Part shown: positions 1,051 through 26,757 of the stretch, piece after piece
Numbering within the stretch: position 1 is the first letter of the stretch
Layout: the number at the start of each line of letters is the position of its first letter
NCBI GenBank assembly: GCA_008632985.1
Contig: QPGO01000017.1
Location: forward strand, 682,001 to 746,000
Direction: 5' to 3'
DNA length: 64,000 nt
From: Psammoneis japonica
Taxonomy: Eukaryota
Notes under the pieces: model-generated
Databases searched by the model: none
What the model was told of the DNA's origin: nothing
Seen by the model: only the letters and a program-made list of their open reading frames with translations
Made by a program: the position numbers and the translations under genes

Positions 1051-1084
1051 AAATGGCAGTGAGTTCAGCCTCAGCCTGTCACCT

Positions 1085-4000: not shown

Positions 4001-4765
4001 GCACCATGAGCTTTGGAATCAAAGACATCAAACAGAAGGCTGCGCAAATTGTTCCAGATGAAGAGAGAATTGCTGTTGCCCTGGCCTGTGCTGCAAAGAG
4101 GGTGTTTGGGAGAATGAGAGTGCAAGGTCTCAGACAAACCCAAGAGAGTCAACAACCAATGCCCAGCCAAATGAACAGTCATTGTGGCTGCTGCTGCCAC
4201 CTGTGGGTCCACTCTCAAGCTGACCAATGGAATTTTCACTAAGATGAGGAGTTTTTGGTCACAACATGAAGTGCAGTCATTGTCACTTGCAAGCAACATC
4301 TTTTGTGATGCTCAAGAGATTTCCAGCATCAAAATCTCTGGGAACACTGGGGTCTGTGCACACAGAAATGCTCTGGTGCCACATGTTCCGGGGCCAAAAA
4401 CCAGTGGGTCTCCATGTGTTATGTGAGGGCCTTCCATTTCATGCTTGTGGTCAGTTGAAAGCCCGCCTTGTAAATGTGCATCACACACAAGTGATGGATG
4501 CAGTTGTTCCCTGGCTCTTTGAAAATCACAATGTTTGCAACATCTTGCCAACGGTCACATGAGTGACCCCACTTAAGAGCACAATTCAAGAGGTTTAAAT
4601 GGATGGTTTGAAAAGTCTTTTGAATCTGGCCCAGGTGCAATCTCTCTTCAGCAGGATTTCTGAAAGGGTTGGTCAATGAGGAGCAAAGATGATCAGCACA
4701 CATTGCCTTCCAGTGACCAAGATGAAGACCAGACTTGATGGAAGTGGAGGTGGGAGGCAGTCTTC
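1085..4765 (-). mobile_element. Degenerate non-LTR retrotransposon (Ambal-like; RT + RNase H + C-terminal Cys/His region)
   Basis: SGLHLGHWKA (~4720); NCIHHLCVMHIYKAGFQL (cf. LRVIHIYEADYNL); CCDQ (cf. CYDR); STGQGNSNSLFIW; RNase H GSDGS..FGW, WCDNKAL, KWVKGHQD (~1950); CLACEHPMEDQDHILRC (~1530). Heavily frameshifted. Confidence 0.7.
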
Positions 4766-5170
4766 AGCAGGAGCGAAAAGTGGCACTGCTTGCATTTGCA
4801 CGTCAGATGGGTGGATCAATCAATCCCCAGAGAGGCTGTCAACTTGGCAGAGTTGGGATGGTGCAGCAATTTGCACAAACAGATCCCAGAAGTCCCACTT
4901 CAAGCCTGAGCACATGCAGAAAAATGGTGAACACCCACATTGGTGGGAACTGGAGGAGCTTGACTTGGCTCTGAGGAAGGCAGCAGGGCAACAACAGACT
5001 CTTGAGAAATTTCCAAAATGTGGAGGGAACTCCAGCTGTGGATGCCAGCTGATGGGATCAAATTGTTTGCTGCACCAGACATGCCATCTGAGACACCAGG
5101 AATCATTGAGCAGGGGTGGCCCATGTGCAGACGCATCATCTTCTGGAAGATCACTGACTGTGCCTGGGAG
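4766..5170. repeat. ~405 bp dispersed direct repeat, copy 1 (copy 2 at 8082-8486)
   Basis: Near-collinear match agcaggagc...tgcctgggag. Differences are mostly transitions, including reciprocal TG/CA. Confidence 0.9.
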
Positions 5171-5399
5171 ATTCTTTTGCTTTCCTTCCACCTGTTTAAG
5201 TCCATGAGCACTCCTGCAATCCTCAATTCTCCACTCACCTTCCTTTTCATTGCCCATGTTAAACTTAGAATCTTCACATCTTCCAGGACATCTTGTGCAC
5301 CACAAATGCTCCACTCCAGCTGCTTTGCCCCAGCACAGAGCACCAGCTGGCTTCATGGCTTCATTGCATCTCATGACTTTTGATTTTGATGTGTTCTTC

Positions 5400-6130
5400 T
5401 GAATCTTCCACCTGGCCCAGCTCCAACCAATGGTGGATCATGCAGCTCTGGTGCAGCAGAAGCATGTCTTGTCCATGCAAAGCTTGTCATCACAGCACGC
5501 CAGAAGAGCAGCAGCCAAACCCACTGGCAAAACCAGGTCTTGCACTCAATGGTGCACTGAAGCTGGCTGCATGCATGCCATGCAATGGACTGAAGAATTG
5601 AGCAGTGCTCTGGCAAAAGATGGATGAGAAGGTCTTGCCACAGTTGGACAAAATCATGAAGCAGATGGAAGCAGATGTTAAAGCAGATGCCAAAGCAGCA
5701 TCAAGAGAGACTTTAGAAGAGGCAAATGAACTTTGTGCCAAGTCTCAAAAACGTGAAAGCTCACATTTGAAATGCCAAGAATGACTGTGCCTCTGATGCT
5801 GAGCAAGCTCTTGTTGAAGCCTCCTGCCAGTGCACAAAAAAAAAAGCCCAGGTGTGAAGGTGCTGGAGCCTGGAGAAGATGAGCAAGAGTCATGGTAAAA
5901 GAAGGCAAGCTTTTGTCCAAACAAGACATTGTCAACCACAGTGAGGCATGTGTCAAGCCTGGGTGTGACTGCTTCATTGACAAAATCACTGACCCAAGTG
6001 GACCATGCCCCAGTGCTGTGAATCCCTTCTGGACAGCTGAGTTGTTCAACCCACTCACAAAAATGAATCATGAGTCTGTCTGTGAAACAGAGGATCTTGT
6101 GGATCAGTGTGTGCTGCTCAAGTTTCAAAT
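5400..6130 (+). mobile_element. Possible degenerate hAT-like transposase fragment
   Basis: HSEACVKPGCDCF...FWTAELFNP resembles a YAKACVxPGxDYF...FKAARLFxP segment I recall from hAT-like transposases. Weak match. Confidence 0.25.
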
Positions 6131-6329
6131 GAAGAGCCACTGCTCCTTTGCCAGCTGTGCTTGTGGCAGCCACCCCACACATTTTCCAGCGCACTCAACA
6201 AGCATGGCAGAAGGGGACAAGGACCAGCCAGGATGGGTGTTGCCTTCCAGTGATGTGCCCCACCAAAGTGGCTGTCAATGGAGAGGGGGCCACAAAGTGC
6301 AGTGTGCTTTGCTTTCTTGACTTTGGCTT

Positions 6330-8010
6330 TCAATTGTGGTTTGCCATGGCTGCCTGATTCTGATTTCTGGATTTGCCATGTGTCATGTGCTCAGCCAGGG
6401 AATCCATGAGATTTTTTCTGTCTTTCACAAGGTGTTCTTGGCATTTGATGCATGTGGTGGTGCGCTCAGCCTCAGCTTGTTGGTTTTGAGAGGACAGGAT
6501 TTGCAAGTGCCCACATCATGTCTGTGGGCTACCTTGTCATGCTTCACATGTGCAATCCAACCCAAGCCACCCAAACAGGGGGGACCATTCTCTTTGTGAT
6601 GTTGGCCCAGAAGACTCAACTCACAAAGATGCAGCAGCTCCTGAAAGGCACTCCACAAAGTTGAGTGGTGCCCCCTGAAAAATTGCTGCAAACTGATGCC
6701 AGGCTGAGCTCTCCACAGCAGACAAAGCATGGGGCACACTTTGAACTCATGAGCCATCTCGTCATGAAGCCAAGCCTCAAGAGATGACAAACAGAGTTCC
6801 CACCAATCTTGTCACAATGCTTGCAAAGGCCTTGAAGAAAGGCCCATCACCTGGCTTTGTTGTTTGGACATTTAAGTGTGTGGTCCCTGTCCTCCATTGG
6901 GTGCCCACATGCAAGGCAACAGTGTGGTCTCACTGCATTGCATTGGTTGGTGATCTTGCTTGTTGCAGGGAGCAATCCATGAGTTGGGTCCTTGGCTGTT
7001 GACACACGCTTCTCAGAAAAGCTTTGGACAAGTTGGTGTGCACATTCCAGTCAATCTTGTCAGCAACAGATTTGTCCCAATTGTTTCTTTCACCGACACA
7101 CTCTGTGAAGGCAGGGGCTGCAGCTGCATGACAGACTGATGCCTTTGATCTGGCAGCCACCATGCAATCTGAAAGGCTGAGGCATGCTTGGCAATGGGGA
7201 GTGGGTGTCACTTGAGTCACATTTCTGGTGTGTTCATCTTGGTGTTGACCAGCCAATTTGTCTGCTCACATGTCAACCTGAGCATTTGATGATGCCAGAG
7301 CATGTCAATCCTGGTGACCCTTGACCCACAGAGTGGTTGGTGCCTGGCCTGGAAAGGAAGTGCACACCAACAAAGCAACTGTTGGCGGAGGTCTTGCAGG
7401 CTTTGTTGATGACAAAACATGGGTGCCATGATGTCGGCAGTTAAAATCTTTCTCTGGATGAGCTTGAGAAGAGGGTTGATGGCTGGTCTTGAGATGGACA
7501 GGCAATTGAGGACACTTGCCAGTGTGTGGTTGTCACACCAGTTGTCCATGGCTTTGCAGCAAGCAACCCAACAGAACTCAAGGACCCAACACACAAATCG
7601 CACAAGGGAGAGCACTCCACAAGCTTCTGTGTGGTGTGTAAAGACAGGGACCACCCAAAACCCAGCTGTGCACAAACAACCAAGGGGACACCATCAATCA
7701 TTGAAGTCCACCACCCAAAGGCTGCACTCTGAAGACATGCAGATCCATCGCCCCCCAGATGTGGTGTGCTGTTTGGACACCAGGCAACCAACCTGGTCAC
7801 AGAGGGGGATGCATGAAACTCTGGGTCCAAGAAGAGATTAGATTCCACAGAGAGAGAGCCTGCAGGTGCTCTAAAAAAATGAGGAAGAGGTGAGAGGGTT
7901 TCCAGTTCAATTTTTGATTGGTGGGGGGCAAGCTGCTGTGAGCCATCATCAAAGGAAGCAAAAATCTCAACATGGAAGGACTCTTCAGACAGGACCAGAA
8001 TGTTCTCCAT
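6330..8010 (-). mobile_element. Second Ambal-like LINE fragment (RNase H and C-terminus)
   Basis: GGDGSACLQSAAFGW, TEACGVLSLVRF, WCDNHTL, WVKGHQD (~7310) and a C..CGHPMEDRDH motif; paralogous to 1100-2550. Confidence 0.7.
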
Positions 8011-8081
8011 TTAGTGCAGTGTCAATGCCTTCTCATTTTGGACTGAAATGATGTCAAAACTTGCCGGAGACCAAACACATT

Positions 8082-8486
8082 AGCAGGAGCAAAAAGTGGC
8101 ACTGCTTGCATTTGTGCATCAGATGGGGGGATCAATCAATCTCCTGGAGGGGCTGTCAACTTGGCAGAGTTGGGATGGCACAGCAATTTGGACAAACAGA
8201 TCCAGAAGCCCCACTTCAAGCCTGAGCAAATGCAGAAAAATGGCGAACACCCACATTGGTGGGAACTGGAGGAGCCTGACTTGGCTCTGAGGAAGGCAGC
8301 AGGGCAACAACAGACTCTTGAGAAATTTCCAAAATGTCAAGGGAACTCCAGCTGTGGGTGCCAGCTGATGGGATCAAATTGTTTGCTGTGCCAGACATGC
8401 CATCTGAGACACCAGGAATCATTGAGCAGGGGTGGCCCATGTGCAGATGCATCATCTTCTGGAAGTTCATTGACCATGCCTGGGAG
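8082..8486. repeat. ~405 bp dispersed direct repeat, copy 2
   Basis: Aligns with 4766-5170. Confidence 0.9.
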
Positions 8487-9714
8487 GTTCTGAGCAATGT
8501 GCTGGCAAACCTCCTTGCATTGTGTCTTGTGCACAAGGGCATTGCAATGAGGAAATGTGGTCACCTCCTTGCAGGCAATGATGTCCAAAACTCCTTCAAT
8601 GAGCTGAGCTTGGGACCAGGTGGAACTCAATGGCTTCTGTGCAGCAAACAATTGGAATGACACAATTTTTTACTGCCAGGGTGGCCGCTCTGGTGTTGAG
8701 CAGCCTTGTCATGCTCTTCTGGACAAGAGCGTTGCCAATGGGACAGAGTCAAGATTGCTCTGTGATTGAGGACATCTCCATCGGCAGCACATCCATCTGA
8801 CAAAAGACTGTTGACTCTGTCATTGAGATGGAAGGTCACTGCATTGGACATGTCAATTGTGACCACCTGGGATGACTGTGTGCCAGAGTCTTGCATTGAG
8901 CAAACCAGCAGCTTCAACAGAGAATTGTTTGTGCCCATCATGTGCACCTTGGAGATTGGCAACGAGTTGTGGCTGCCATCAACACACACAATGCTCACAA
9001 CATCACAGTCATCATCAGCTCAAATGGCATGAAGCACTCTTCCATGCCTGCCATCACCTTTCTTTACTCGTCCCTTTGCCCTTGCCTTGGCTTGATTTTT
9101 GTTGCTGGTGGTTGATCCTCCTTTGTTGCCTTTCCCTGCACACAGCAAAACTTTGGCTGCATCAGGTTGAGAGGAGGTGCCACCCAATCCATCAGGTCTG
9201 CAGTCACTTGCTGCCATCTGCCACTGCAGGCTGCCAATTGCACCAAAAATTGCCAATCACCCCAGTCACAGCTTCAGCCACATTTGGAGCCAAGAATGTC
9301 ACAGCATTTGGGCATCATCTCCTTTAGAATGGACATGGCTTTTGAGCTTCACATCAAGTGCACCTTCAGCAACATCTGGCATTCAAAACAAAGTCAGCAT
9401 TGAAGAACATGGCTTGGAGTGTTGCGCTGACAGCTTCTCCTGTTGGCACTCAAGCACACAATCCCGGTGGCAAGCAGCAGCCTGACTTCAAGATTGCATG
9501 GAGGAAACCTGGAAAAGTGAGATTCCGTTTTGGCAAAGAGTGCATTTTTTCTACAATGGAGCTCATTGCAATTCTGCATTGTGGTGAGAGCAGAATGTCT
9601 TGTGTGGTGAGAGCAGAAATCTTGCAAACTGCACGCATGGACAACAACAGACGATTTGTGCACCTCTGACCCACCGCGTGCCAGCATGCACTCACTCAAC
9701 CAATGAACCAATGG

Positions 9715-10188
9715 AGTCAAAGCTCCCGTGTGCGCTGAGCTCCGAGTGCCTTCCCAACCTGTCAACTGGATGTCCACTCCAGACTGACACCTCAGGCAAA
9801 ACACAAGCAGAAGGTGTCTGCCAAGGAGCAGCAACAAACATTCAGTCAAATTGTCTTCACAAAACCACTGGTGACCAAGTTGTGAGCCACCTAGACTGAA
9901 TCTGGTGAGTGCACCAAATTTGGGTTTATCCGCACATTTGCACTGGAGACTGGCACAAGCTTCAGGGTCAACCACTTCCACAACAATCATCCAAGTGCTG
10001 CTGAGCCAATCTGTGGTTGGTCCAACATCTGTGCAATGCCTGTGATTCCCAAAGCAGCATCCATGATCCTCAAAGCATGCAGCTTCAGAGTTGAGTCCAT
10101 GTGGTGTGAAAAGAACTTCAACAAGAATTCTGACCGACGGCAGTGCAGACACAATGGAGAATTTGGGTTGGTGGACAGATGACCCACA
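9715..10188 (-). repeat. 3' LTR of the 9.7-17.4 kb copia
   Basis: Follows the PPT and aligns with ~16987-17388 over ~390 bp. The left boundary is approximate. Confidence 0.7.
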
Positions 10189-13100
10189 ACTCTCCCTCTC
10201 ATTCACAGATTCTCCCAACCAACAAAGAAATTGCAAATGAGAAAGCTCACACAATTGACACAAGTTCAGAGCAAAGCTCCTGCATCTTGACCAAGCCACA
10301 ACATGCAACAAATGAAGGAAGCAATGCTCCCAACAGACTGCCACCCCTGGACCTTCAACCAGTTGTTCTAGAAGAGCTCTTGAGTCAAAGGCTTTGTAAG
10401 AAAGTCAGCAAGTTGATCAGCCAATTCCACCTTGAACACATCAAACTTGTCACAATGGAACCAGAGCCAATGCCACTTGATGAGAAAACACTTGGTGCAA
10501 TTTGTGATGTGGTGGTTGGCACCCAGACAGGAAGCGCCTTGATTGTCTTTGAACATGCGGGCACAAACAGAGGTCCTGAGATCTTGGGGAATGTCCAAGG
10601 TGGAGATGATCTCAAGGAGCATGTTCTTTTGGGATGGGAGTGTTCAAAGAGCACAGGAGGTGGCTTGGCACTTGGCTTCAAGGGTGGAGCATGCAATGGC
10701 TGACTGGAGCTGCAATTTTTTCTACACCAAAGGACATCCACTGAGAGTGTGAGACATCCGGTGCAAGACTTGATCAAACTTGGATCCAAATCCTCTTTGC
10801 AGTGGCAGAGACAAGCAAAATTGGCATCAACCTACAAGTCAGGATCCAAACAACCGGTTGGAGACAGAAGCATTCCCTGATCACCTGTCCTCTTGAGGCA
10901 TCGGACGAGAGTCTTGACTGTGGCAGCGCACAACTGCTTTGGGTTGGAATTGAAGTGTGCAACCTGACTGATGGCAAGAAACATGTCAGGACAGGTGTCA
11001 GCAGACAAGCACAGCAGCTTTCTGACAATGAAGGGACAACTCCAATCCTCCTGTGTGGGTTCCCTGTTCGGATTGCTGCTGAGAGCCTGAGATGTTGCGG
11101 GAAGCAAGTTTAGTTTGCAGACAGTCAAACCAGCAGCAGCCAATGTCTTGTCAATCAAACACCTTTGCAACAACTTGACAGCACGATTGTCCCGTCTTTT
11201 GAACTTGATGCCCAGGAACTTGGTGAAACTGCCCTCTTTCATCAATTCAAATCCTTTCTCGCGCAGCTGAGATGTCACTTGATTGATGGTGGACTCCTGT
11301 GCTGCACTGACACCACAATCATTGATGCACAGACAGACCATGCAATCTTCGCGGAGCAGAAGGCATTGGTTGCACTCACTCTGGATGAATCCCAAGTCCA
11401 AGAAAGCCTGCAGACAATGCTCATGCCACAATTTGGGAGCCAAAGAGAGTCCATGGAGACTCTTGACAAGCTTGAGGCAGGTTCTGGAACCTTTGTTGAG
11501 CTGAAGCCTTGTGGAAGCTGAATCCAAACTGGCTGGTTCCTCCATGGGAAGTGCAGCTCAAACAAAAGCAGACTGGAAATTGGCAGATGCTGCACCATCC
11601 AAGAATCAAACTGAGTTCCAAGAATGCTCAAAATGTGCTCCAAGCAACAAGAGGAGCACAAGTGTTGAACAGGCTCCCTTCCTGCAAATCACCTCAACAG
11701 CAGTGGTGAGCCTTGCATTTCTTGATTTCACCTGATGGCAACCACTTGCAACAAAACACCCAAGCACCAGGAAGGATCTTGGTTTGAGCTTCAGACATGG
11801 GTGCTTCTTGCCACATTCCTTGATGCACATGAGCAGCAATCTCTGTCTTGGCTGCTTTCAACCACTTGTCACAATCAGGAGATCGCATGGCCTTGTCCCA
11901 TGACAGCGCAGCACACCAATGCCTTGCACACGGAGGGCATTGTAATGGACACATTGCAGCCATGACAGAACTTGCATGCATGATGGAAGTCAACAAAATG
12001 GGACAGGTGTCCATGCCCCTGAGAACCATCACAACCAAACTGATCAGGGGCAGCATGATTTCTGGTGGAACGCCAAGCTGGAGCAGGAGAGGGGCGTTTC
12101 ATGCTGGGTGGAGGCACTGGAGGTGACTCCCTCTCTTGACCAAGACCCAAAGAAAAATTTTGAGGGGCAGGAGACTCCCTCTGAGGACTTGGAGACAGAC
12201 TCAAGCTGCCAACAGGTGTGCTCTCCCTCTGAGGTGAGTCTGAAACCACGGGTTCAGTGGGAGACTCCAACAGTGGCAGGGACTCCATGGCAGGAGCCGG
12301 TGGCTCCACAAGAGGACTTGAGGGAGGCTCAGGAGGAGATGCTGGCGCTTGAGCAGCCAGAGGAGGCACCTGGAGTGGGTTGGGAGGTGACCGGCGGGTG
12401 ATGGTCTCCTGAACTTCTTCTGACCGTCATTCGCATTCAAGGCATTCTTGACAAATGTCAACATCAGCCTGCTCCTCATTGTCCACAGTGTGTTGTCACA
12501 CACTGTCTCCAAAAAGAGATGTCCATTCCGGAGATCCAACAGCAGGTGACAAGTCCACATTGGCTGGGACTGCAGCAAACCAATCATCAAAAAGGACGTG
12601 AAATTGTGGAGTGATGGCTCCTTTTTCAAGACTCAAAACTGGCAGGACTGACAATGCATGCTTGGATCTAAGTCCCACGCAGACATGCCAACTCATGCAG
12701 GGTTTCCACTTTGGCAGTTTTTCCCATCAGCAATTTTCTTGTCAAGAACATAAACAGGGCACCCCCAAACTTGGCAATTCTGGAACGGAGAGCAAGGATT
12801 TTAGGTCTGGGTGAACACATCCTGCAGACTAAGACCCGTGGAAGGGTCAGGCATTGTGTTGCACAACATGACAGCATGATCCACAGCAAGTGGCCAAAGG
12901 GTGGCATCAGCAACATCAGGCCAATGAATCACAGTGTGCAACATCATTGTTCTTGAGATTGACATGATGGTGTGCATTGCGCATTTGGTCAAGCCATTGT
13001 GGTGGTGAGCACCTGCCCCAGCATGCCTTGACACTTGAGCAAAGGACTCCAGATGAACCCAATGATCAGCCAATGTAAGTGCCTTTCCATTGTCACTCTC

Positions 13101-16100
13101 AAATGTTCTTGGGGAACAAAGCCACAGTTGCAACAATGAGCCTCAAACACATTCTTGGCCTGGAGAGTCTCATGGGAGTTAAGGTGAGTCTGATGTTGAA
13201 CGTTTGTGCAGCCGGATGTATGATCCACAAAGATGGCACCACCTGAACATTGATGTTTTGTGTCCTCTTTTCCAAAGGCATGCTTCAGACATCCGCGCGT
13301 GGAGCAAACAAAATGATCAACCAACACCTTCTGACCGGGAAAGAGCTGACCTTTCTTCAAAGCTCAAGCTTGATCCTTGACAACACGAGAAGTCTTTCCA
13401 GGGGAATGACGGCGTTTTTGTTTTCCACATTGACATGCGGCACAAAGAGGAGCACAATTGACATGACAAGCCCATTCATGCAGACGACGAGTGGCATCAA
13501 AGTGAGACAAAACCCCCGTCTGCATCAGAAACTGCAAAAGCTTAGATGCCTGAGACAAAAGTGCCAACGTGGCAACTTCTTTTCAGCAGGTGAGAGGTTG
13601 TGATTTCATTCCATTGTTGTCGAAAGCGTCAAATGAAATGCCTCACAAATTTGTTGACTTGCTTGATTTGCACAGGCCCACCCGACAAGCAAGTTGGTTG
13701 AGGGTTCAACCAACACTTCAATGCTGCACCTGGGACCCTGTTCACCACTTTTAGATCCGCTGAGGATCGTGCGGTCCAACAGCAGCTCAATGGACTCATC
13801 TGGGTGTGTCTGTGGGAGACCAGCAGTGCTCAAGAGACAAGCCTTGGACTTCAGGACACAGTGGGCAGGAACCTTCAGGGTGTGAAGAACCCCAGTCACA
13901 TCAACAAAGGACCAACCAATGTGTCCCACACCCGCAATGTGCAGTCCCTTGGCAATGCCTTGGAGCTGGATGGCAACAGGAGGCTTCTTGAGAGGCCCAA
14001 CAAAGTCATCCTTGCAAGGTGAAAACTGATGCACTTGCACCTGAGTCCCAAATCACAGGGAAGGTGTGCTCTTTGGGACTTGTAAATGCCACCTTGAGAG
14101 CACTGGCAACCAACAGGAGAGGTGACGGGATGTCAGCATTGGCCAGGTGAGCCTCAGCTGCTGGAGAGCATGTTGCGTCAAGCTGAAAGCACGTCAAACC
14201 ATGCATCACATTCAAACCAGCAGGGCAACACTTGGGAGTCTTGAGGTTGCAACAACCTCTGTGACAAATGTCGGGACCCCTCTTGAGAGTGGTGCTCTTA
14301 GAATGCTTGGTGCTTTTGGTGGGATGTGCCTCTCCCTCTTGACCAAGGAGAGGACATGCACGGGTGAAGGCAAGTGAGCGCCGCTCAAAGGCCTTGACTT
14401 CCTCACTCAAGTCACACAACTGCCAATGCTGCCGCTGCTTGATGCTGGGCGGCCAGCGGGCTTGCTTGACAAGAGAGGTGTGCACAGGGTGCTCAGGGGA
14501 GGGTTGACACCACCCAGAGCAGGTCCACAGCTCCCACAGATGATGGTGGCCCCAGTGGCAGTGACGCCTGGATAAGTTGGTGCCTTTGCATGCCGCCCAG
14601 CATGGAAGAGGAGGTGGCAGAGGCTCCTGTGAGACTTTGGCATGAGCATCTTGCTCAAACTTAGAAGGCAAGAAGACAGCTGCCAGCAGCATCAAGAACC
14701 AGAGAGCGGGTGGTGGACAGAGACGCCAATGGGATGCGGCATGCAGCACAATGACAGTCATGAACCAAATCAAGGCATCAACACCAACAATCCACCAGTC
14801 AGCTGGGAGCTGTGAGTGCCAACATCCAAAGGTGGCACAGAGCAAAGGGGAGGCAAAAGGATGAAACAAGGTGAGTGCCACCTGAAGCAGTCCAAGAAGC
14901 ACTTGCCCTGTGCCAGGATCTGGGAAGAGAGTGTTGGCTTGCTGAGCAGGCACAGCAGGAGGAGCATCATTCTGCCCATGCTTGGCAGCGCCGTGGGTGG
15001 CAGACCAATGCCGGCACTTGCCACACCACCACCAAGTCTTGCCTTGTGCAACCTTGGACTCAGGTCAACCAGGGTGAGGTGCAATCTTCTTCCAGCTGTG
15101 TGCGATGCCGCTTTTGCTGTTGCTGCCTCAGTTTCCATTGTCACCACAGTCTCCATTGCCACCGGCACAAGTCCTGCCCTGACCACCTCATCCTCCACCA
15201 CTTTGCCCAGAATTGGATCTGCCATGATTGCCTCCAGCACCATCATTGGACTTGTTGGGACAGTTGCACGCCCAATGTCTGAGCTTGCTGCAGATGTGGC
15301 ACTCAGAGTTTTTGGGGGTCTTCTTTCCAGCAGAAGTCTTCTGCTGCTGGAAGAGAGCATCAAACAGGGGCAAGTGGAACACCAACCGTCTGACAAGTGG
15401 CAGCAGGGTCAAGCACTGGGTCTCCAAAGGCTTGGGGAGTGGCCTTGGAGTCCAATGCATGCACTTGACAGGGTCCCACTGTGCATTGTTCTTGAACAAG
15501 CTGCAATGGTCCAGGATCTTGCCGATGACCTGGGAGCAGGCAAGGTTCTTGGATGCAAGGGGCTTCTTTGCATCTGTCTTGGACTTGCGTGCAATCTCAG
15601 CCAATGCTTTGCTCAAGTCTTCCTTCACAGTGTGGAGAGCATGCTTGAACTGCTGACCATTCTCACCATCGCCACCAGCTTCCAAGCATGCGTTGACCAA
15701 GGTAGAGTCAACTTGTTGTCACACTGTCCTGCGACGTCTAACTCTTGAGTGGTGGTCTTGAACCTCGATGGCAATGCAGACAGGTCCTGACTGGCAAACT
15801 GAAAGGGTTTGAGAGCCTCCAACTGTTTCTTGAGTTGCTTGAAGCATTTGATGGATGTGCTCTTCAAGATCATAATGAGAGTGATCCACACCTTTGGAAA
15901 GCAATCAGTCTCCTCCATTTCTGGATCCAGCTGGACTGCTGGACTGGTCTCCAGGGAGTTCTTGAGAAACTCAGGCACGTCCCTGTCATTGGAGGTGTTG
16001 CAAGAATCACACTTGGCAAGTTGAGGTGCAACAAGGCAAACAACGCTCATCTTGAAGCACTGAGGGTGTCCTTCAATGCAGCATGTCATCTCAGTTGGGT

Positions 16101-16986
16101 CCTTGGGATCCACTGGGCAAGTCATGGCACCCAAACTGCAGTCCTTGAGATGCTTCATGACATTCTTCTCAAAAGTTGCAAGGTCTCCCTTTTTCTTAAA
16201 CTTGGCAGAGAGTTTAGATGCATGCCAGGCCTTGCTCTTTTGGGCAGAAGAGACATGGTGAGAGTGGCGCTGATTCGGGACGTTGGATTGGGGGTGGCAG
16301 ACGGGTCCAGCCAGGACCAATCAGCCTTGGGTTTCCCACCAGTCCAATCCACTTTTTCAGTGGTGCCAACAGAGGCAACTCCCCCCATCTTGGGAGCCTT
16401 TGGCTTGCGGACTTTTGTCTTTGGTGTTGCTGCAGCTGCCATTGCAGCCATGGCCTGAAGGGCACAATGTTCATTGTCCGTCATGCCATTGCCTGCGACA
16501 GACTCATCATCAGAATCGTCCGGACAATGTCCCAGATCTGGAACAGACTCATTGTCCAAATTGTTGGGGTCTTGAGGAAGTGGATTATCTTCTGGCAGAG
16601 GTTGTTCCTCAAGCAGCAGGTTTTCAAAGTTCTCGGGGTCCTCAGCCATGTCCGACAGTGTGCTTGAAGCTGTCAAGTCGGACCAGTCATTGGGGACGTT
16701 CTCAATCAAAGAGTGCAAGCTTTGAGAACTCTCTTGGGTCTCAGGAGGGCCACGGGGTGGAGTGGGGCCTGAGATGGTGCACGTGCAAAATCAACAGCAA
16801 ACCTTCTGGAAGGACCAGGTCTTCAGCTGACGGAGTCAGGCGCAGCACTTGACATCAAGAGCGCGGAGCGTGGCTGGAGGGCAGCGCTGCCACTGGTGTC
16901 AAAGCCGCAGACAGTTGCTCCAGTCTGGGCATCCCCAAATGGAATCAAAGGAAGGTGTTGAGTTTCCCCAATTGGGCGAACTGACC

Positions 16987-17388
16987 AGTTGAAGCTTGCA
17001 CGTGCGCTGAGCTCCGAGTGCCTTCCCAACGAATCGACCGGATGTCCACTCCAGACCGACACCTCAGGCAGAACACAAGCAGAGGGCATCTGCCAATGAG
17101 CAGCAATGAGTGTCCAGTCAAACAGTCTTCACAAAACCACCAGTGACCAAATTGTAAAAGCTGCCCAGACTGAATCTGGTGAATGCACCAAATTTGGGTT
17201 CATCCATGCACTTGTGCTGCTGGAGACTGGCACAAGCTTCAGGGTCAACCACTTCCACAACAATCATCCAAGTGCTGCTGAACCAATCTGTGGTTGGTCC
17301 AACATCCATGCGATGCCTGTGATCCCCAAAGCAGCGTCTATGATCCTCAAAGCACGCAGCTTCTGAATCGAGTCGACGTGGCGCAAAA
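16987..17388 (-). repeat. 5' LTR (partial) of the same copia
   Basis: Direct repeat of ~9715-10105. A TGG PBS-like sequence is adjacent on the minus strand. Homology stops abruptly in an A-run at ~17388. Confidence 0.7.
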
Positions 17389-17391
17389 CAC

Positions 17392-17489
17392 TCTCCATCG
17401 TGAGTCTGTGGATGGACCGGGGCCGGTGTGCGAAGCGCGCGCGGTGCGGTCGGTGCATCGCATGCGGCATCATAGACTCACGATGGAGA
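17392..17489. repeat. 19-bp inverted repeat (candidate Helitron subterminal stem-loop)
   Basis: tctccatcgtgagtctgtg ... catagactcacgatggaga; one mismatch, at a TA/TG site. Confidence 0.8.
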
Positions 17490-18047
17490 CGAGAGTGTGC
17501 AGTGGGCCGGCGCGAAAAGAAATGGAGAATTGGTTCCTCCTCTTTTAGGTGGAACTCTCTAGATTGAAGTCTGAAACCGAAAGATTTTGGATTGCCGCCC
17601 TTGCTGCCATCAGAAAATAGAGCCATGACGATTGCCTGCACCAATCATTTTGCTGCATTTTGCGCCGGGCACTCGAATTAATCACAACATGTGACGGTTG
17701 TTTCGGTGCGCACTTTTGCGCGACCCACGCGACATGACTGACACGCGCCAGTGCGTGGTGCTGGTTGTTTTGCTTCTGACCGTTCTGTCTTCTGTGAGGT
17801 TTCATGAGGCTGTCTGTGTGCATTGATGTTGTCTAGTTGTGCATGTTGATGTTGTCCAAGGCAAGCTGCGTTGGATTAAGTGAGTGTGGAAATGTACGAA
17901 ATTTACGCATTGTTGCAGTTTCTTTGCCAAATGGTTGGTCCTCATTTGTGGCCACACTCAATCCGCGGCGGCTTGAGTGAAAGTCCATGTGCATGCATTT
18001 TGCGCATTGATGCGGTTGTCTTTGCTAAACAGCCATTTGCAATTTGC

Positions 18048-18518: not shown

Positions 18519-18664
18519 TCGACGTTGTGTGACGTGTGTGTAGATTTCTGCGCAATGTGCTGATCTAATCGAAACATTTTATTTTACGAAATTTCCGCAT
18601 TTTTACGGTTGGGGTCGCCAAACAGTTGTGCAGTGGTTGAGCATCCTAATCTCATGTTTGCGTG

Positions 18665-21600
18665 CTACATTGACATTTCTGCGTGCTGTTGCTGAGAAAA
18701 ATGCGTGGCGCTTCTCTCCTTCATGAGTCTCATCAAGGCTTCGTGGCCTTCTGGGACCTTGCATTTTTGCAGGTCCTTGCTTGGTGGCTTTTGCATGAAC
18801 AGCCCTTCTCTGGTCTTTACTCTGGAGAGCACAACATGCACCCAATTCTGAGGTAGCTCCAAGAGTGTACAAANNNNNNNNNNNNNNNNNNNNNNNNNNN
18901 NNNNNNNNNNNNNNNNNNNNNNNNNNNNNNNNNNNNNNNNNNNNNNNNNNNNNNNNNNNNNNNNNNNNNNNNNNNNNNNNNNNNNNNNNNNNNNNNNNNN
19001 NNNNNNNNNNNNNNNNNNNNNNNNNNNNNNNNNNNNNNNNNNNNNNNNNNNNNNNNNNNNNNNNNNNNNNNNNNNNNNNNNNNNNNNNNNNNNNNNNNNN
19101 NNNNNNNNNNNNNNNNNNNNNNNNNNNNNNNNNNNNNNNNNNNNNNNNNNNNNNNNNNNNNNNNNNNNNNNNNNNNNNGACCTTGTCAACAGTGGCTTGC
19201 GTTCCGTTTGCTTGACCGTTTGCGGCATTTTCGTTGAAAGGTGTCATGACTCTGCATCCTCTGTAAATTCGTAAGACTGGATCCATTCTTCCTGATTGCA
19301 TGACAACGTCTCCTTCACCACAGTTGTTCCAGAAGCTGTTGTAAACCGGAAATGGTTGGTAGAGTCTCGTGCCATTCTGCACCTGCAAGTCGTCACTGAA
19401 AATCAACATTGAGTCAAGGATGTCTCCATCTCTTCTGTGCAGTGTTTTTACTCTTTTTTCGAATGGGCCAGTGCCAATTGCATCTCTGTCCTTATTTGCG
19501 TGCATGGCACAGCGGAGGTCACTGGGCAGATCATCTTCGTTCTGAACTACTCGTTCGTTGATGTGCTCCACATCGTCAACTGCAATCTCACCAGTGCGGA
19601 ATCTCTTGAGCAGTTTTCCCCATGATGGATCGTCTTTAAACCTGTGCACACCACGAAGTTCCATGCAGCAGTTGATCCACTCGTGAAACTCGGGACATGC
19701 ATCTTTGCATGGTGGTTTCACTCCTTTTCCGACTGGTTCTAGTTGCCTGAGGTCACCTGCGAAAACAATGTTCACACTGCCGTGCGGCTTGCTCAATTCA
19801 CTCTTCAACACTGTCAAATTCTCATGGAGTTTTTCTAGTTCTCTCTTGCTTGCAAAAGAAATCTTGTCTGCCACCAAAAGTCTCGTGTCTGACCATGCTT
19901 CAATTTGCTCTTCGGTCATTTGCTTTCTTCTCATGAGGCATGCAACTCGGTGGATTGTGCCCCCTTTGAGAATGGTGGCAGCCACTCCGGTCAGTGCAGT
20001 TGTTCTGATTGTGCTTGTTGTGAACGGCTGCTCAACAAGCGAGCAACACTCTCTTCCGTGTTCCACGACGAGGTCTGTTGTGGTTGATTTGCCACTTCCA
20101 CCTGCACCATGTAAAAAACACACAAGTTGCAATGTTCTGCGTCTTTGCACTTCCACGAGTTTCTTCAATCGGCAAAGGTTTGTTGCGAATTCATGTCTGC
20201 CATTTCTCCTGTCAAGTCCATTGCGTGACGTCTCGTCTTGAAGAGCGTCTTGACAGCAAGTGAGCACAAAGGTTCCTGCTAGAATTTCAAAGGCACGCTG
20301 CTGTTGCCCATCCAGTCTTGCTTTCCTGGCCCAGTCTACGACACTTGCTGCAGATCCGTTTGCTTGACGCACATCGACGTGTTCTTCCAAACCTGTTGTG
20401 TCCTCAAACGACCTTCTTGTTCTTTGCGTTCTAGTCAGTGTCACTCGAACAACATCGTCTCTTGACAGTGGTCTGCTGTGGATGTGTTGTTGCACTCCTT
20501 CATTCTGGTCTTCCTTGTCGGTGTCATCGCCGCCCTCTAGATTCTCAAAAAGTTGTCATTCATTGACCTGGCTTTCCTCGTTTGGTGGGTCAGTGTGCAT
20601 GTCTGCCAAGCATTTGCAACCACCCATGTGTGAACCTTTCTGTCTTGCACGTTTGCCACTCAAATGCGCAGGAACAACTGCTTGGTCGCTCAACCCAATG
20701 TCATCGTCTTCTGGCTGCTCTGCCATTTCTTCCAAGAGTGCATCCAGCAGTTGACCCTGAACGGCGCCTGAAAGACCTTCTTCCTCGTCACTTTCGCAAC
20801 AGTCAAACGCAACGTCAGCAGGTCTAAATTGCTCTGTTTTTCTTTGCAGATCGTCAGATGTACTTTTGAGACGAAGGCAGTTGGACTTGGCATCCTGCAG
20901 GTTCTGCAAGAAGTTCAAGTTTTCCTCTGCAATGACACCGGCTGCTGCGGAGAGTTGGAATTCACGCAGGCATGTGTGGGTTGTTGGTTTGAGTTCCGTC
21001 ATTGTTCTGTAAGGCGCAAACAAGGCCAATGCCAACTTGCAGCACAATTCTTTGTCCAGTGTTGTTGGTTGCTGCGGGTTCACAAGGCAACTGCCAAACT
21101 TGGCTGCATCAGGAAAATCACACTGAAGCACTTTTAACAATCGCGGTTGCTGTCGCTGTCTGACACCTTGAAGAAACTCATTCTTTGTTGAATCACAAGA
21201 CGGGTGCCTGTGCGCTCTGTCATCGAACATCATCATGCCGTGTTCGTTTTTCCTTGTGTTGCGAAGAACTTCGCACTCACTAAAAAACGCAAACGGACTG
21301 AGATTCTCCAGTGCTGTTGGACGACGCAGGCAGTGCAAGGCCTGGCATTGGAAGAACGGTGTGTCGCCAAAACAGGCTACAGTCGCAGACACTTCGTCTC
21401 TTTCTAGTGTGCTGATAATGTCTTTCAAGGGGCACCATGCGGTCAAATGAGATTCGATGAAACGGCTTCCGTTCCTTGTCATGTAAGACGCAAGTGGTGG
21501 TCCAATGACGTTCGTCTTGTCATGCGAGCAAGCACCCCACATGAGACGTCTGATTGCTTCCGATGCATCAGATGCGTGTTTCCGTAATTCCGTCGCTATC

Positions 21601-24314
21601 CTGTTCGTAGTTCGAAGCACTTCGTCGTACGATGCAGCATCATCTTTCTGGGTGTCTTTTAGGATGTGCTCAATCGTGTGTTGAGCAGACGGTCCAGGCA
21701 TCAACAAAGCAATGTTTGTGTTGCATGTCAGTTTTGATCTGCTTGTTGCAGGGCACGACACATTTTGAAAAGCATCGCACTTTCTCCTCTTCGGAACAAC
21801 TTCCTTCACGTGCCGACACGCAAAAGTCCCATCCCAGCTGAACCACTTTATCTGAGTGTCATCTGCGTTCCTTGCCAAATTGTTTGGACACGAAGCAGCT
21901 GGTTGCCTGTGACGGCAGTCACCTAGTTTGAGCTCCTCTCATTTCCTTTTCCTTGACAGCGCGTCCAGTTCCTCGTGTGGGGTTTTTTTACGCATTTTAC
22001 GTAACTCCGCGCATTTGGGAAAACACGACTTCGTAACGTGCATGTGATGGTTGTAAGCTGCGTCCGGCACATGTGCCTCTATTGTCCCTTGCGGACCACT
22101 TCGCTGGCATTGTACACACATTGCTTTTAGTCGCTTTGCATGGTCATCTGGATGGCAAGTCAGGCCAGGTGCACGGTGCCGTGACTGTAAAAAGCTTTCT
22201 ACAAACTCGACGTTTGTCCAGTGCTTGGTGCAGTGACCACAACAAGCAAACATTCCGTTCTTCGACTGCTGGCCGTCTTCATGCCTCAGGTTTCTTAGCT
22301 GTTGGTCGTCCACTGCTTTTGGAGAGGTGCGATGCATTTTTGGCACTGTGCAGTCATGATCGAATGCTTCGCGCAACGCGTTGGGGCTGAAGTCCTCGCT
22401 GCAGATTAATTCCGTGCTGCAGATCTTCTGAACTGTGTTGGCAAGGTACTCAGCACCTTCGCGTCGGATCTGTCTCATTGGCGAATGCAGTTTCTCTCTT
22501 GCATTGTTGATCGATGCAAACCAGATCTGCATGTGTCCGTGTGCTGTTGGACGTCCCTGCTCCTCAACTGCGGCTAAAAATGCGGCTGGCCTGCCAATGT
22601 AGAAGTTAAAGTTTTCTCTTGGTTGGTTGGCACTCAGATCCCAACCCACTGCCTCTTCCATTGCAATGTCAAACAAGCACTCGAGTGCAAAGGCTGTTAG
22701 ACCGGGAAACTTTAGACGTGGTTCATTACGTTGCTTGGCCCTGCCAGCAAGAATTTCGTCCGTCAGTTGTGTCACGTCTTCGTTTGGGTCCAGGATGACA
22801 CCCGAGTGCAGTTGCACAAGAAACGAATTTGCATCGTCCGGACTGACGGTTAAGAAAATGCCACCCTGACCAAAATGATGCTGACAAGTTTCGGCGTTTC
22901 TCCTCATTTTCTTTGCTGCTTCGTCACTGTGTGGCAGAGACGCAGATGCAACGTCGAGTGTGCGCAAAAAGTGGTGCCCGAGTCCACAATCTCTTCTCTC
23001 GCCCAAGTTGCGATCACAAACAGCTCCATCCACATCGTCCACTGTCAGTTTGTTTGCAAACTGTGCAGCCTGATTCTTGTCCCTGACTTTCCACCCTGCG
23101 CTCTGTGGCATCCTTTGCTTCATTGTCAAGTTGCAGCATGTTAACACGAAGAGCTGCTCGTGGAAGTGAGGCTGGGAAATCCGTGCCAAGTGGTCGGCAC
23201 AGTGTGCAAGGTTGGTGCTGTCTGTGAGACTTCCGTCTTTCTTCACTCTCGTCTCATTGATTCCTCCTCTGCCAAAAGGAAACTGCAGCAGACACGCGTT
23301 GATGAAGTTGTTGCCTTTGAAATCACTCGCAGATTCTTTGGACAACTGTGCTTGCACCTCTAAATCAAATCCGTTGGCAGCAGCTTCGTGCACAAGATCT
23401 TTGAAGCAGTCCAGGTTGCGCTGACCACCGGTCGCAGGAGACATGGTTCCATCAGGAAAGCAAACACGAAATGACTCTGAGGTCTCAATGTTCGCATTTT
23501 CTCCTTCTTCTTCGCCGGTGCTGTCGACAAGTGCGGGATTCCACAGATTACGCCTGGCTTCGTCTAGATTTGTCTGTTGGCACACCCACTCTTGGTCATG
23601 GCACAACAGCCATTCCATCGCCCTCAGCATGCAGTGCGTCCTAATTCTGTTCTTTGAACGCGCAAGTTGTCTTTGCTCCGGAGTCATCTTTCCAGTCATC
23701 AGTGCAATCACATTCTGATGTAAATTCAGTGCATCGAAGTGCACAACAGTTCTTACGATGCTTTGTGTCTTGACTTTGTAGCGTGTCAGACTTCCCTGAA
23801 GCTTCTTCTGTTTGCCGCCAAAGTGACTGAAGCAGCACCCGCATGTTTTCACTGGTGTGAGCATTGCCAACTCCACTTCGGTTGGAGACAACAGTTCGTG
23901 CGGCGGGGTGCCGAAACAGCAGTTGTTCGCTGTCGCGCACATTGGCACAACGGCTCTTCCCAGGCTTCTTTGGCATTCGCTGCAGCAAGTGAATCCATTG
24001 ACGCATCGTCTGTCTTCCTGTGCTGCGCATTGGGCGCGGGGAGAAAGCAGCAGGTCTTTGATCCAATCAGCATCTTCATGCTCTACAGTGCAGCAGGACT
24101 TGAAACGATCAGACACGCTGTTCCAGTCTGAAGGGGTGAGTGAGTTTCTTGCTGATTCCAATGTTTCGAGCAGCAAGCAGCAAACTTCTCTGGGTTTCAG
24201 CAGAACGTCACAGACTGAACATGCGTGTGGTCTAAATTCTCTGTCTCCATGCAGACAAAGCATCTCAAACTTTCCATTGATTGCGTTGCAAACACGGGAG
24301 TTGGCCTCATCCAT
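18665..24314 (-). pseudogene. Helitron RepHel (HUH Rep + PIF1-family SF1 helicase), ~1880 codons with two in-frame TGA stops and an N gap
   Basis: ORFs 24314-21939, 21878-20556 and 20495-> are in one frame, separated by single TGA codons (likely CGA->TGA). N-terminal CxxC..P..ANN..G..P.EL..TEVE segment, LQFPFGRGG; Rep motifs FLTVSPDD, VEEQGRPTAHGHMQIW, QHTIEHILK (cf. YxxxY). Helicase motifs GAGGSGKST, LLVADKISF, FAGDLRQLEPV, VHRFKDDP, NGQANGT and, after the gap, WVHVVLSRVKT. Confidence 0.92.
18874..19178. other. Assembly gap (305 N)
   Basis: Run of n inside the helicase. Confidence 1.
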
Positions 24315-24399
24315 TTTAATTTAAGCTGACACTTTGACTCGACAAATTTCAAGAAGTCACTCAGCAAAAACAGTTGTTTTTTCGGTGCGATCACCGTGA

Positions 24400-25082
24400 A
24401 GCTGCGATCGGTGCCATCCAATCACCACAGCGATGTGTGTTTTCTCGCCACCTGCAGCACTGCGACTGGTGTCGTCCAGTCACCACAGTGGTTCTGTCCA
24501 GTTGATCAACGAACCGCGTCGGTGCTGCCCGCTCACCGTAGCACTGTGTCGTCTTCTCACAACCTGTGCAATCAGGTCGCTGTGAGCACTGCGACTGGTG
24601 CTGTCCAGTCACCGCAGCCGAGTTAATCAGTTGCTTGACGAACTGCGTCGGTGCCACCCGATCACCGCAGTGTTGTGTCGTGTTCTCACAACCTGTGCGA
24701 TCAGGTCTCTGTGAGAGCTGCGACTGGTGTCGTCCAGTCACCGCAGCTGAGCTTGTGCGTTGTCTCACAACCCACGTTGCGAGGTGCAGCGCTGTGTTGT
24801 TTGCTCACAACCTGTGCAATCAGGTCGCTGTGAGAGCTGCGACTGGTGTCGTCCAGTCACCGCAGCCAAGTGAATTAGTTGCTTGACGAACTGCGTCGGT
24901 GCCATCCGATCACCGCAGTGTTGTGTCGTGTTCTCACAACCTGTGCGACCAGGTCTCTGTGAGAGCTGCGACTGGTGTCGCCCAGTCACCGCAGCTGAGC
25001 TTGTGCATTGTCTCACAACCTGCGTTGCCAGGTCACTGTGAGAACTGAGAACTGCGATCGGTGTGGCCCAATCACCGCAGTT
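24400..25082. repeat. Tandem array of ~129-bp units built from three imperfect hairpins, upstream of RepHel
   Basis: ctgcgactggtg starts at 24460, 24589, 24718, 24837 and 24966 (spacings 129/129/119/129). Confidence 0.9.
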
Positions 25083-25236
25083 GGATGCTTTTCGTTTCCC
25101 TTTGCGCAAAGGTTCTGTCACAAAAAAGTGAGACGAAAGTGTGCCTCTTTCACCTCGACGGAAGAGTGACGTGTGCGTTCCTCCCACGTCCTTCTTCGTA
25201 CCAGACGTGCGACATCCCACTTAGTTTCGTCGACGT

Positions 25237-25340
25237 TGAACATCCCATGGGATGAGATTTGGATCTTGTTCAAGTTGTTTCGACCATCTGCTCTGAACAT
25301 TCCATGGGGTAAGATTCGGATCTTGTTCAAGTTGTTTCGG
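25237..25340. repeat. Two-copy 57-bp tandem repeat with internal palindromes
   Basis: tgaacat.ccatggg.t.agatt.ggatcttgttcaagttgtttcg at 25237 and 25294. Confidence 0.85.
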
Positions 25341-25884
25341 CAATCTTGGTGGTGGGCGCAGCTTTACGTAAATTCCGTAGAATCACGCTTTAACGAGTGG
25401 CGGGGCAGTTGAGTTAGTCGTGTGGCAACAACAATGCGATTGACGTCATTCGTGTTTCCAAAGTGCACGCGAATCCTCCAAATGGGTGATGGGCCCACCT
25501 CAGCTAACTGCCGGTGCAGCATGCAGTGACAGCGATGGCGTCGACCGTTTGGCGACTAGATTTCGTGTGCGATGGCCGCGCGGCAGTGACGGCTGAAATG
25601 CACACGAAGCACGGACGGAATTGCACGTGATTTTACGCATTTTCAGTGAACTTGGCAGACTTTGCGTGCTCCGATCCTTGCATCTGTTTTGTTCAAATTG
25701 AACCCATGCACCACTTGCAAGTGCTGACACCTGGAAGGTCACTTTGTTGCAGTTCGACGTGTTTGAATCTGGTTGCTGACGTTGCCAGTTCTCCTTGGTG
25801 TGATGCACGCAGCTCTCTGGGTCTTTCTTGGCACTTCTGAACGATCGCACTTTTTGTTCCCATAATTTCTCTCCGACTGATTTG

Positions 25885-26757
25885 ATGGCACGCAAAAGAA
25901 ACACAACGACCTCCCCGGCTGCGAAAGCCAAAGTCGCCGAAACCAAACAGAAGAAGGCAAAGACGAAGTTTTCTGATGCTCTGTTGAAGAAACTAAGTCC
26001 GCCCCGCAAGACCAACGGCTTGACCGACGACGACCTTAAACCGGAAGACTGCCTTGCCAAGCACGGGTTCAAGCTTTCCAAATCCGCCGGTTCTGATGAT
26101 GGCAGCCATTCCGACAAGGACGCTCTCCTGCGCTGCGCCACCGTCACTGTCGGCCGCAAGAAAGGCGTCGTTTTTCGTCTCCAAGCCAAGAATCCCCTTT
26201 TGACCAATGTTTGGTCGGAGAAGGTTCTGTTTGACAACCTTCGCAGCAGGACTCCGTGGGCGGTTCAAGTCGGATTCCACCCTTGTGCTGGCAGGTGGGT
26301 TCACGAGGGCGAGTTGCAGACGAACGCCAAGAACTGCGCCGTGCGTCTCTTCTTCATCTTCCTCGAAGAAGTCCCAACCGATGCCAAAGTGCGCGGCCTC
26401 GGGAAGCACATTGTGAAGCAGCTGAACGATGACCCTGAGAACAACACCGAGGTCTTCATTGAAGACGACTTCTTCTGGATGAAGGATGCTGTTTGGTCCG
26501 AAGTGATCGGCAACGAGGCGGCGCTTGCCGAGCTTCAGAAGGAAGGTGGTCAGTTTCACATCGGTTGGTGTGCCCAAAACAAGAACTCACTTCACAGTCA
26601 CTTCTACAAGGGGTCGTTGCCTGTGGAACTCTGTCGTCTCATTGGAGCTCCGGCAGAAGAAGCTGGAGAAGAGGCCGACGATGATGTCGAGCTCAACTGC
26701 GAAGTTGACCTGAACGTCGATGACGACTTGGTGCTTCAGGACAGCGACGAAGACTGA
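25885..26757 (+). CDS. Hypothetical cargo protein with Lys-rich N-terminus and acidic C-terminal tail (TpA-mutated)
   Basis: Open 290-codon ORF MARKRNTTTSPAAKAK...EEADDDVELNCEVDLNVDDDLVLQDSDED; GC3-rich codons; followed by a poly-T run. Confidence 0.65.
   Translation: MARKRNTTTSPAAKAKVAETKQKKAKTKFSDALLKKLSPPRKTNGLTDDDLKPEDCLAKHGFKLSKSAGSDDGSHSDKDALLRCATVTVGRKKGVVFRLQAKNPLLTNVWSEKVLFDNLRSRTPWAVQVGFHPCAGRWVHEGELQTNAKNCAVRLFFIFLEEVPTDAKVRGLGKHIVKQLNDDPENNTEVFIEDDFFWMKDAVWSEVIGNEAALAELQKEGGQFHIGWCAQNKNSLHSHFYKGSLPVELCRLIGAPAEEAGEEADDDVELNCEVDLNVDDDLVLQDSDED

Follow-up and report, generated by a model that had tools for sequence, protein, structure and literature searches.

Helitrons read one structural signal, a 3′ hairpin, and at the Helitron 3′ end this hairpin is followed by CTRR some 10–12 nt on. 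In REP/BIME sequences with their RAYT partners and in IS200/IS605 elements, imperfect palindromes of ~30 nt with an extrahelical feature are read as folded single strands by an HUH enzyme, and at geminivirus and circovirus origins a hairpin- and repeat-bearing spacer separates the divergent Rep gene from a second gene. Passages of PMC13085455 describe the Helitron RTS as a hairpin near the 3′ end followed by CTRR, and report that Paramecium Helitrons carry, from the left end to the ORF, up to seven satellites, together with a mosaic of segments ~44 nt long; passages of PMC7492417 describe satellite arrays borne by oyster Helentron derivatives. In the full texts searched, no hairpin-module array was described for the control region of a Helitron.

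We analyzed a 64-kb stretch of diatom DNA, referred to here in its full length as the window, in which a rolling-circle transposon present in many copies contains, at positions 24400–25082 (683 bases), a succession of ~16 small bulged hairpins that are all copies of one. RepHel is encoded by three minus-strand ORFs (24314–21939, 21878–20556 and 20495–18603) with Pfam matches to DUF6570, Helitron_like_N and PIF1. Upstream of the RepHel ATG (24314), 86 nt precede the array, which occupies part of a 1.57-kb (1570-bp) divergent spacer, with minus-strand RepHel on one side and ORF-X on the other. Because it is flanked by RepHel and the conserved accessory gene ORF-X, the array is internal to the element, and because ~7 kb separates it from either presumed end, it is not a terminus. 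A preceding reading of the letters alone (the sequence-only reading) had put the array at the junction of RepHel and cargo, and its position is indeed such, with RepHel to one side and the cargo part of the element to the other. The host genes on the flanks (WDR55, CLU) are eukaryotic, with few or no introns. The features are listed below; strand is given for genes, and modules that carry no source in brackets were identified by pattern search, alignment and covariance model.

18603–20495, minus strand: RepHel PIF1-type helicase ORF, including a 305-N run at 18874–19178 (ORF list, Pfam)
20556–21878, minus strand: RepHel middle ORF (ORF list, Pfam)
21939–24314, minus strand: RepHel N-terminal ORF, DUF6570 + Helitron_like_N (ORF list, Pfam)
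24362–24397: two small hairpins in the interval between the array and the RepHel ATG
24400–25082: the hairpin minisatellite in full, with units of 129/119 bp forming a 248-bp higher-order repeat (TRF, module map)
24400–24432: module B′1, its G>A changes being C·A mismatches on the plus strand and G·U/G·T wobbles on the minus strand (alignment, covariance model, folding)
24441–24457: truncated remnant of a C module, with A at 24447 in other copies (sequence reading, contig variants)
24458–24490: module A1
24512–24543: degenerate B module (alignment, covariance model at 29.2 bits, folding)
24555–24587: module C1
24587–24619: module A2
24641–24672: module B2, 5′ arm one base shorter
24684–24716: module C2
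24716–24748: module A3
24766–24798: module C′1, decayed, stems broken (folding, higher-order copy comparison)
24803–24835: module C3
24835–24867: module A4
24889–24920: module B3
24932–24964: module C4
24964–24996: module A5
25011–25043: module C′2, loop CGTTGC (geometric scan, alignment, covariance model)
25050–25082: module B′2 (geometric scan, alignment, covariance model)
25237–25346: second tandem repeat in the same spacer, 57 bp × 1.9, with a CCCATGGG core in each copy (TRF)
25885–26757, plus strand: ORF-X, conserved accessory gene, divergent from RepHel (synteny in relatives, structure prediction)

As a non-coding tandem repeat present in many copies inside a Helitron-type element, the array belongs with the internal satellites that Helitrons carry. 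Non-coding tandem arrays have likewise spread with Helitron-type copies in the Hel15/16 satellites and the ‘Mosaic’ of Paramecium (passages of PMC13085455) and in oyster Cg_HINE and the central repeats of Drosophila DINE-type elements (passages of PMC7492417). Two further likenesses concern Paramecium as described in passages of PMC13085455: the Mosaic, with its ~44-nt segments, also consists of near-uniform short modules, which here measure 33 nt and come three to 129 bp, or ~43 nt each, and the satellites sit between the left end and the ORF, a placement comparable to that in the spacer here. Unlike these Helitron-borne satellites, the array has a bulged hairpin for every module, with stems that covary from one module type to another, and its setting is a spacer between two divergent genes; passages of PMC13085455 on the Mosaic report no hairpin content.

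Fifteen of the 33-nt modules in the array are intact or nearly so, and one more has decayed. Each module is built from an outer stem of 6 bp, an inner stem of 6 bp, a loop of 6 nt and, on the 3′ arm of the plus strand, a bulge of 3 nt, and the module map and covariance model place all 15 in a single orientation on one side of RepHel only. The sequence-only reading had described ~129-bp units of three stem-loops with 6-nt loops and 3′-arm bulges; loops and bulges are as it described, and the period needs amending, as C-A-B units of 129 bp alternate with C-A-C′ units of 119 bp to form a 248-bp higher-order repeat. Over 24460–25033, TRF reports both a period of 129 (4.3 copies, 77% matches) and one of 248 (2.0 copies, 92%).

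Pattern search recovered the three sequence types (A, B and C) to differing degrees. The five copies claimed for hairpin A were all found at ≤2 mismatches, against a chance expectation of 0. For hairpin C, where about five copies had been proposed, four were found at ≤3 mismatches, to which the variant C′ at 25011 can be added, whereas the C′ at 24766 is decayed. The proposed total of about five B hairpins, written G(A)TCGG, stands at five B-type modules of uneven quality: the two canonical ones (24641 and 24889) are one 5′-arm base short and lack the A, the two flanking B′ copies (24400 and 25050) have GATCGG with a G>A mismatch in the 3′ arm, and one (24512) is degenerate. Outside the array, none of the A, B and C patterns occurs in the 64-kb window, where the chance expectation is also 0 for all three. 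The array folds more stably than its shuffles both as plus-strand DNA (z −5.35) and as minus-strand RNA (z −4.67), with 0/20 shuffles equaling it in either case. The same spacer also holds a perfect 14-bp palindrome at 25100–25113.

The array is non-coding. A peptide repeat of 43 residues, for example an N-terminal extension of RepHel, would suit a period of 129, which is divisible by 3, and the minus-strand ORFs of 125 and 151 aa that overlap the array. We nevertheless consider it extremely unlikely: stops occur in all six frames within the array, and the differences between higher-order copies are distributed 5/3/4 over the three codon phases, with no 3-periodicity. Long ORFs in every frame are moreover expected because TpA has been lost, the TA observed/expected ratio in the array being 0.10. 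The conserved translated 43-aa repeat that the sequence-only reading had named as its own counter-case is thus not what the frames and codon phases reveal. Rfam 15 returned a single match over 23500–26500, a chance-level SNORD110 (E 0.94) outside the array, and ARAGORN found no tRNA.

Alignment of the 15 modules shows that the pairing of both stems is preserved through compensating changes. Pairing holds in 88.1% of 177 cells, compared with 22–43% when the partners are slid, 8 of the 12 pairs have changed on both sides, and the observed covariation score was reached by 0/500 shuffles. Independent covariation events are few, because most of the covariation lies between types (two pairs distinguish A from B, and seven distinguish A/B from C) and among paralogous modules of a single array. 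The A/B covariation that had been read by eye, CT..AG versus TC..GA, corresponds to column pairs 9/22 and 10/21 of the alignment. No variation is seen in seven columns (C6, G12, G14, C19, T23, C24 and C26), and their letters map to the closing pair of the inner stem, the start of the loop (G-TG) and the bulge (TC.C). We also considered, and rejected, an alternative GGTG/CACC pairing, which is available in types A and B with letters that are not kept in C, and which is the computed fold for mutated plus-strand modules only.

Comparison of the higher-order copies adds a second view of the stems. Over 218 positions in register there are 12 differences, of which loops hold 5/30, spacers 4/56, the outermost stem columns 3/18, bulges 0/15 and core stems 0/99, so that core stems differ from all other positions (0/99 versus 12/119; Fisher p = 6 × 10⁻⁴). 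CpG density is similar in the two classes (14/99 in core stems, 18/119 elsewhere), and TpA is absent from core stems (0/99). The 3-nt bulge is on the same side in 15/15 modules, a constancy that argues against neutral self-correction of a palindrome, which would be expected to erase the bulge, and against a symmetric duplex-DNA site, which would have no need of it. The covarying, conserved stems argue for selection on the hairpin, in line with the selection on structure that the sequence-only reading had proposed; decay of the B and C modules in the first unit counts against this interpretation. Between the higher-order copies, the 3′-most loop base alternates between T and C in modules B, C and A (24657, 24701 and 24733 versus 24905, 24949 and 24981). 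None of these sites is in a CpG or TpA context, and they represent a recurrent change at an exposed loop position.

The array was compared with its genomic copies, using contigs of one DNA run placed at 80% likeness, with variants listed at a 10% threshold and 39 contigs fitting two places; two further runs yielded no contigs that could be placed. The interval 24000–25600 is covered by 526 contigs, and the summed depth over the array resembles that of its flanks; the array is therefore part of the multi-copy element and not private to one copy. All of the listed differences among copies are transitions (36/36). The array itself has 13 listed variants: one in the stem of an intact module (24614, G>A), three in loops (24415, 24655 and 24656) and nine in spacers or decayed modules. 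Two of the loop variants form a CA/TG pair, which indicates an ancestral TA. The imbalance between intact-module stems and the rest of the array, 1 variant versus 12, has p = 0.003, for stems that are without TpA. The constancy of the stems among copies may partly come from this absence of TpA (0/99) rather than from selection. In one contig the modules follow a different order, with a step back of 64 bases.

Depletion of TpA extends through the element, where the TA observed/expected ratio is 0.18, against 0.49–0.58 in the host genes. The RepHel N-terminal ORF retains 4 tyrosines in 791 aa (0.5%), compared with 1–5% in most relatives, and at the seven columns that are mostly Tyr in relatives, six read Cys or His here and the seventh Phe. 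Because TpA is depleted and the RepHel tyrosines have been erased, this copy of the element is dead. TpA-directed mutation in Bigelowiella is reportedly the subject of a preprint. With TpA absent from its stems and formerly present in its loops, the array serves as an internal control for the TpA-directed mutation of this genome. Tyrosine content also varies among metagenomic RepHel relatives, with none in the 866 aa of P0006 and 1.0% in P0007, and a similar erasure of RepHel tyrosines may have taken place in other organisms. The copia-type block at 1–17000 has TA and CG observed/expected ratios of 0.06 and 0.16, compared with 0.18 and 0.86 in the Helitron, and the two seem to differ in mutation history.

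Relatives of the RepHel N-terminal ORF in metagenomic loci are 33–59% identical to it. Of the 24 loci that have upstream DNA, we scanned 23 by folding; these are 33–48% identical and contributed 12 to 324 windows each. In the kilobase upstream of RepHel, stable 36-nt windows make up 0–4% in these 23 related loci and 16% here, and none of the 23 has a hairpin array upstream of RepHel, only scattered single hairpins. A covariance model of the module, run over the whole window, recovered the 15 members on which it was trained and nothing else below E 0.5, and it found no match in 36 related loci. The array is family-specific, since it is absent from related loci by both covariance model and upstream folding, and it lacks conservation across species, since the module model finds nothing in the 36 loci. 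In viral contigs, the module motif had 0 matches and the RepHel profile found no relative. Among genome contigs, the sole true relative is L037, with 510 bp of upstream DNA.

Among related loci, 23 have 100 bp or more of upstream DNA, and in 8 of these the 800 bp preceding RepHel contain short tandem repeats unrelated to the array, which suggests that repeat expansion upstream of RepHel is a habit of the clade. These loci are L004, L005, L007, L008, L016, L020, L024 and L025, with periods of 15–175. A Myb-like CAACTG motif was rejected as a general feature of RepHel upstream regions, being enriched in L007 and L020 only.

The reading that we favor, tentatively and with slightly less than an even chance of being correct, is that the array, a Helitron minisatellite specific to its family, consists of selected single-strand hairpins, which are candidate iterated protein-binding sites. 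The hairpin would form either on the RepHel-sense DNA strand when it is displaced or within a transcript running across the spacer, and would offer an iterated binding site to a protein encoded by the element, RepHel or ORF-X, or by the host. Binding of the hairpins would tune expression or transposition, and tandem growth, through slippage or unequal exchange, would be specific to the family. The lack of the array in the related loci scanned, the few independent covariation events, a dead copy, differences that are exclusively transitions and an ORF-X without a recognizable fold all count against the binding-site reading. A covarying internal hairpin array between transposase and accessory gene is a testable candidate for a second structure-read cis-element.

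The array could instead be a neutral by-product, a slippage-prone hairpin unit that grew into a minisatellite and was carried along by the Helitron, its hairpins having no function. Satellites borne by Helitrons are common, to judge from passages of PMC13085455 and PMC7492417; the relatives lack the array, some modules have decayed, and the contig with altered module order, going back 64 bases, also fits this account. It does not readily explain why one geometry is kept across three sequence types with two-sided changes in two-thirds of the pairs, why core stems are spared the differences found elsewhere, or why the bulge stays on one side throughout, and we judge it unlikely, while taking it more seriously than any other alternative. 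Even if the hairpins are inert, the array remains an example of a palindromic unit seeding a mosaic minisatellite within a transposon.

The position of the array between two divergent genes raises the alternative of a control element in duplex DNA, that is, palindromic transcription-factor sites iterated in a bidirectional promoter of RepHel and ORF-X. The unrelated tandem repeats in 8/23 upstream regions add to this idea, as they show that repeats recur in the control region; those repeats are, however, non-palindromic. The modules themselves fit poorly: the inner half-sites vary by type at 2–3 of 6 letters, each remaining complementary to its own partner, and pairing of the outer stems has to span a 3-nt insertion on one side, an asymmetry that a symmetric dimer on duplex DNA leaves unexplained. 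We consider the promoter account improbable.

The sequence-only reading had written the hairpins antisense to RepHel, so that the 3′ bulge, correct as written, becomes a bulge on the 5′ arm of the RepHel-sense strand. Modules A1, B′1 and B′2 retain the canonical fold solely on the RepHel-sense strand, by way of G·U pairs, which is a weak hint at that strand (about five to one, the cases being non-independent). The structured RNA leader that the sequence-only reading had also suggested would require transcription of the array on this RepHel-sense strand, as a 5′ leader of the RepHel mRNA.

This wobble bias would also favor a different role for the same strand, in which the modules are signals for Rep recognition, nicking or termination, either as iterated origins or as internal copies of the 3′-end hairpin, yielding truncated elements that consist of cargo only. 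The modules resemble the Helitron 3′ RTS in being short, G+C-rich hairpins with CTRR 11–12 nt past 7/10 A and B modules on the RepHel-sense strand (3/5 B-type and 4/5 A), and T is the next base in 6/7. CTRR is, however, a weak motif, expected about once in 64 per position; past A modules it falls inside the next hairpin, and the repeated copies amount to about two observations. Unlike the RTS, the modules are internal, bulged and iterated 15–16 times, and the array is 5′ of RepHel, with ~5.8 kb between it and the helicase stop downstream. No look-alike of a module or of a spacer string was found near the presumed ends of the element, and relatives are without the array. A single contig of 399 nt departs from the array at 24388, a point 12 nt beyond the last module, and continues into DNA absent from the window, as a termination event might. 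It is a diverged copy, differing by 22 letters and 18 gaps over 204 nt, and contig breaks are expected at repeats; the loose-end strings of two contigs are absent from the window. We rate Rep signals below the promoter account, as rather improbable. The sequence-only reading had tied the hairpins to the HUH Rep, a link that gained nothing from the covariance model, with its own 15 members as the only finds in the window and none in 36 loci.

Its comparison with REP and IS200 fails at the class of enzyme. The array does share with REP/BIME–RAYT and IS200/IS605 systems iterated, imperfect palindromes of ~30 nt associated with an HUH enzyme. Unlike those systems, which rely on single-tyrosine bacterial TnpA/RAYT proteins and have hairpins on both sides or in alternation, this element has a eukaryotic RepHel with a PIF1 helicase, and its hairpins all point one way and occur to only one side of the gene.

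The layout also recalls geminivirus and circovirus origins, in which a spacer with hairpins and repeats likewise lies between a Rep gene and a divergently transcribed second gene. The differences are the lack of a conserved nonanucleotide loop, the variable 6-nt loops, the many hairpins and the other Rep lineage. By analogy, the array might be a cis-element of rolling-circle transposition, its bulged ssDNA hairpins being read on the displaced strand by RepHel or ORF-X, either as termination signals that produce cargo-only daughters or as a platform for loading or priming of the second strand. This proposal is speculative, and we place it lower still than Rep signals. If it were true, the array would be analogous to the origin regions between divergent genes of Rep-encoding ssDNA viruses.

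ORF-X has relatives adjoining RepHel in metagenomic loci, divergent from it in L002 and L013 and codirectional with it in L007 (coordinates 840–1967 on the minus strand in L002 and 1130–2116 on the plus strand in L007). Its predicted structure comprises a basic N-terminal tail, a confident core of ~200 residues (pLDDT >90 for 163 residues) and an acidic C-terminal tail. ORF-X matched nothing in Pfam, in the atlas or, at E ≤ 0.001, in Foldseek, and its best VIA-align Z was 4.8, results that carry no information about its fold; Pfam likewise had no match for the other cargo ORFs of the window. In L002, a SET-like ORF at 2–658 on the plus strand, with a weak PRDM2_PR match (E 0.095), lies beside ORF-X and RepHel, and this order of SET-like ORF, ORF-X and RepHel agrees with the order proposed for the element in the window.

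Self-BLAST identified an LTR pair at 9730–10104 and 17002–17381 that adjoins the left side of the element. At 17390–17500 on the minus strand, a long bulged inverted repeat was seen by eye, with a stem of ~19 bp, a 5-nt bulge and a loop of ~60 nt; lying at the junction of element and LTR, it may be related to the end of the element.
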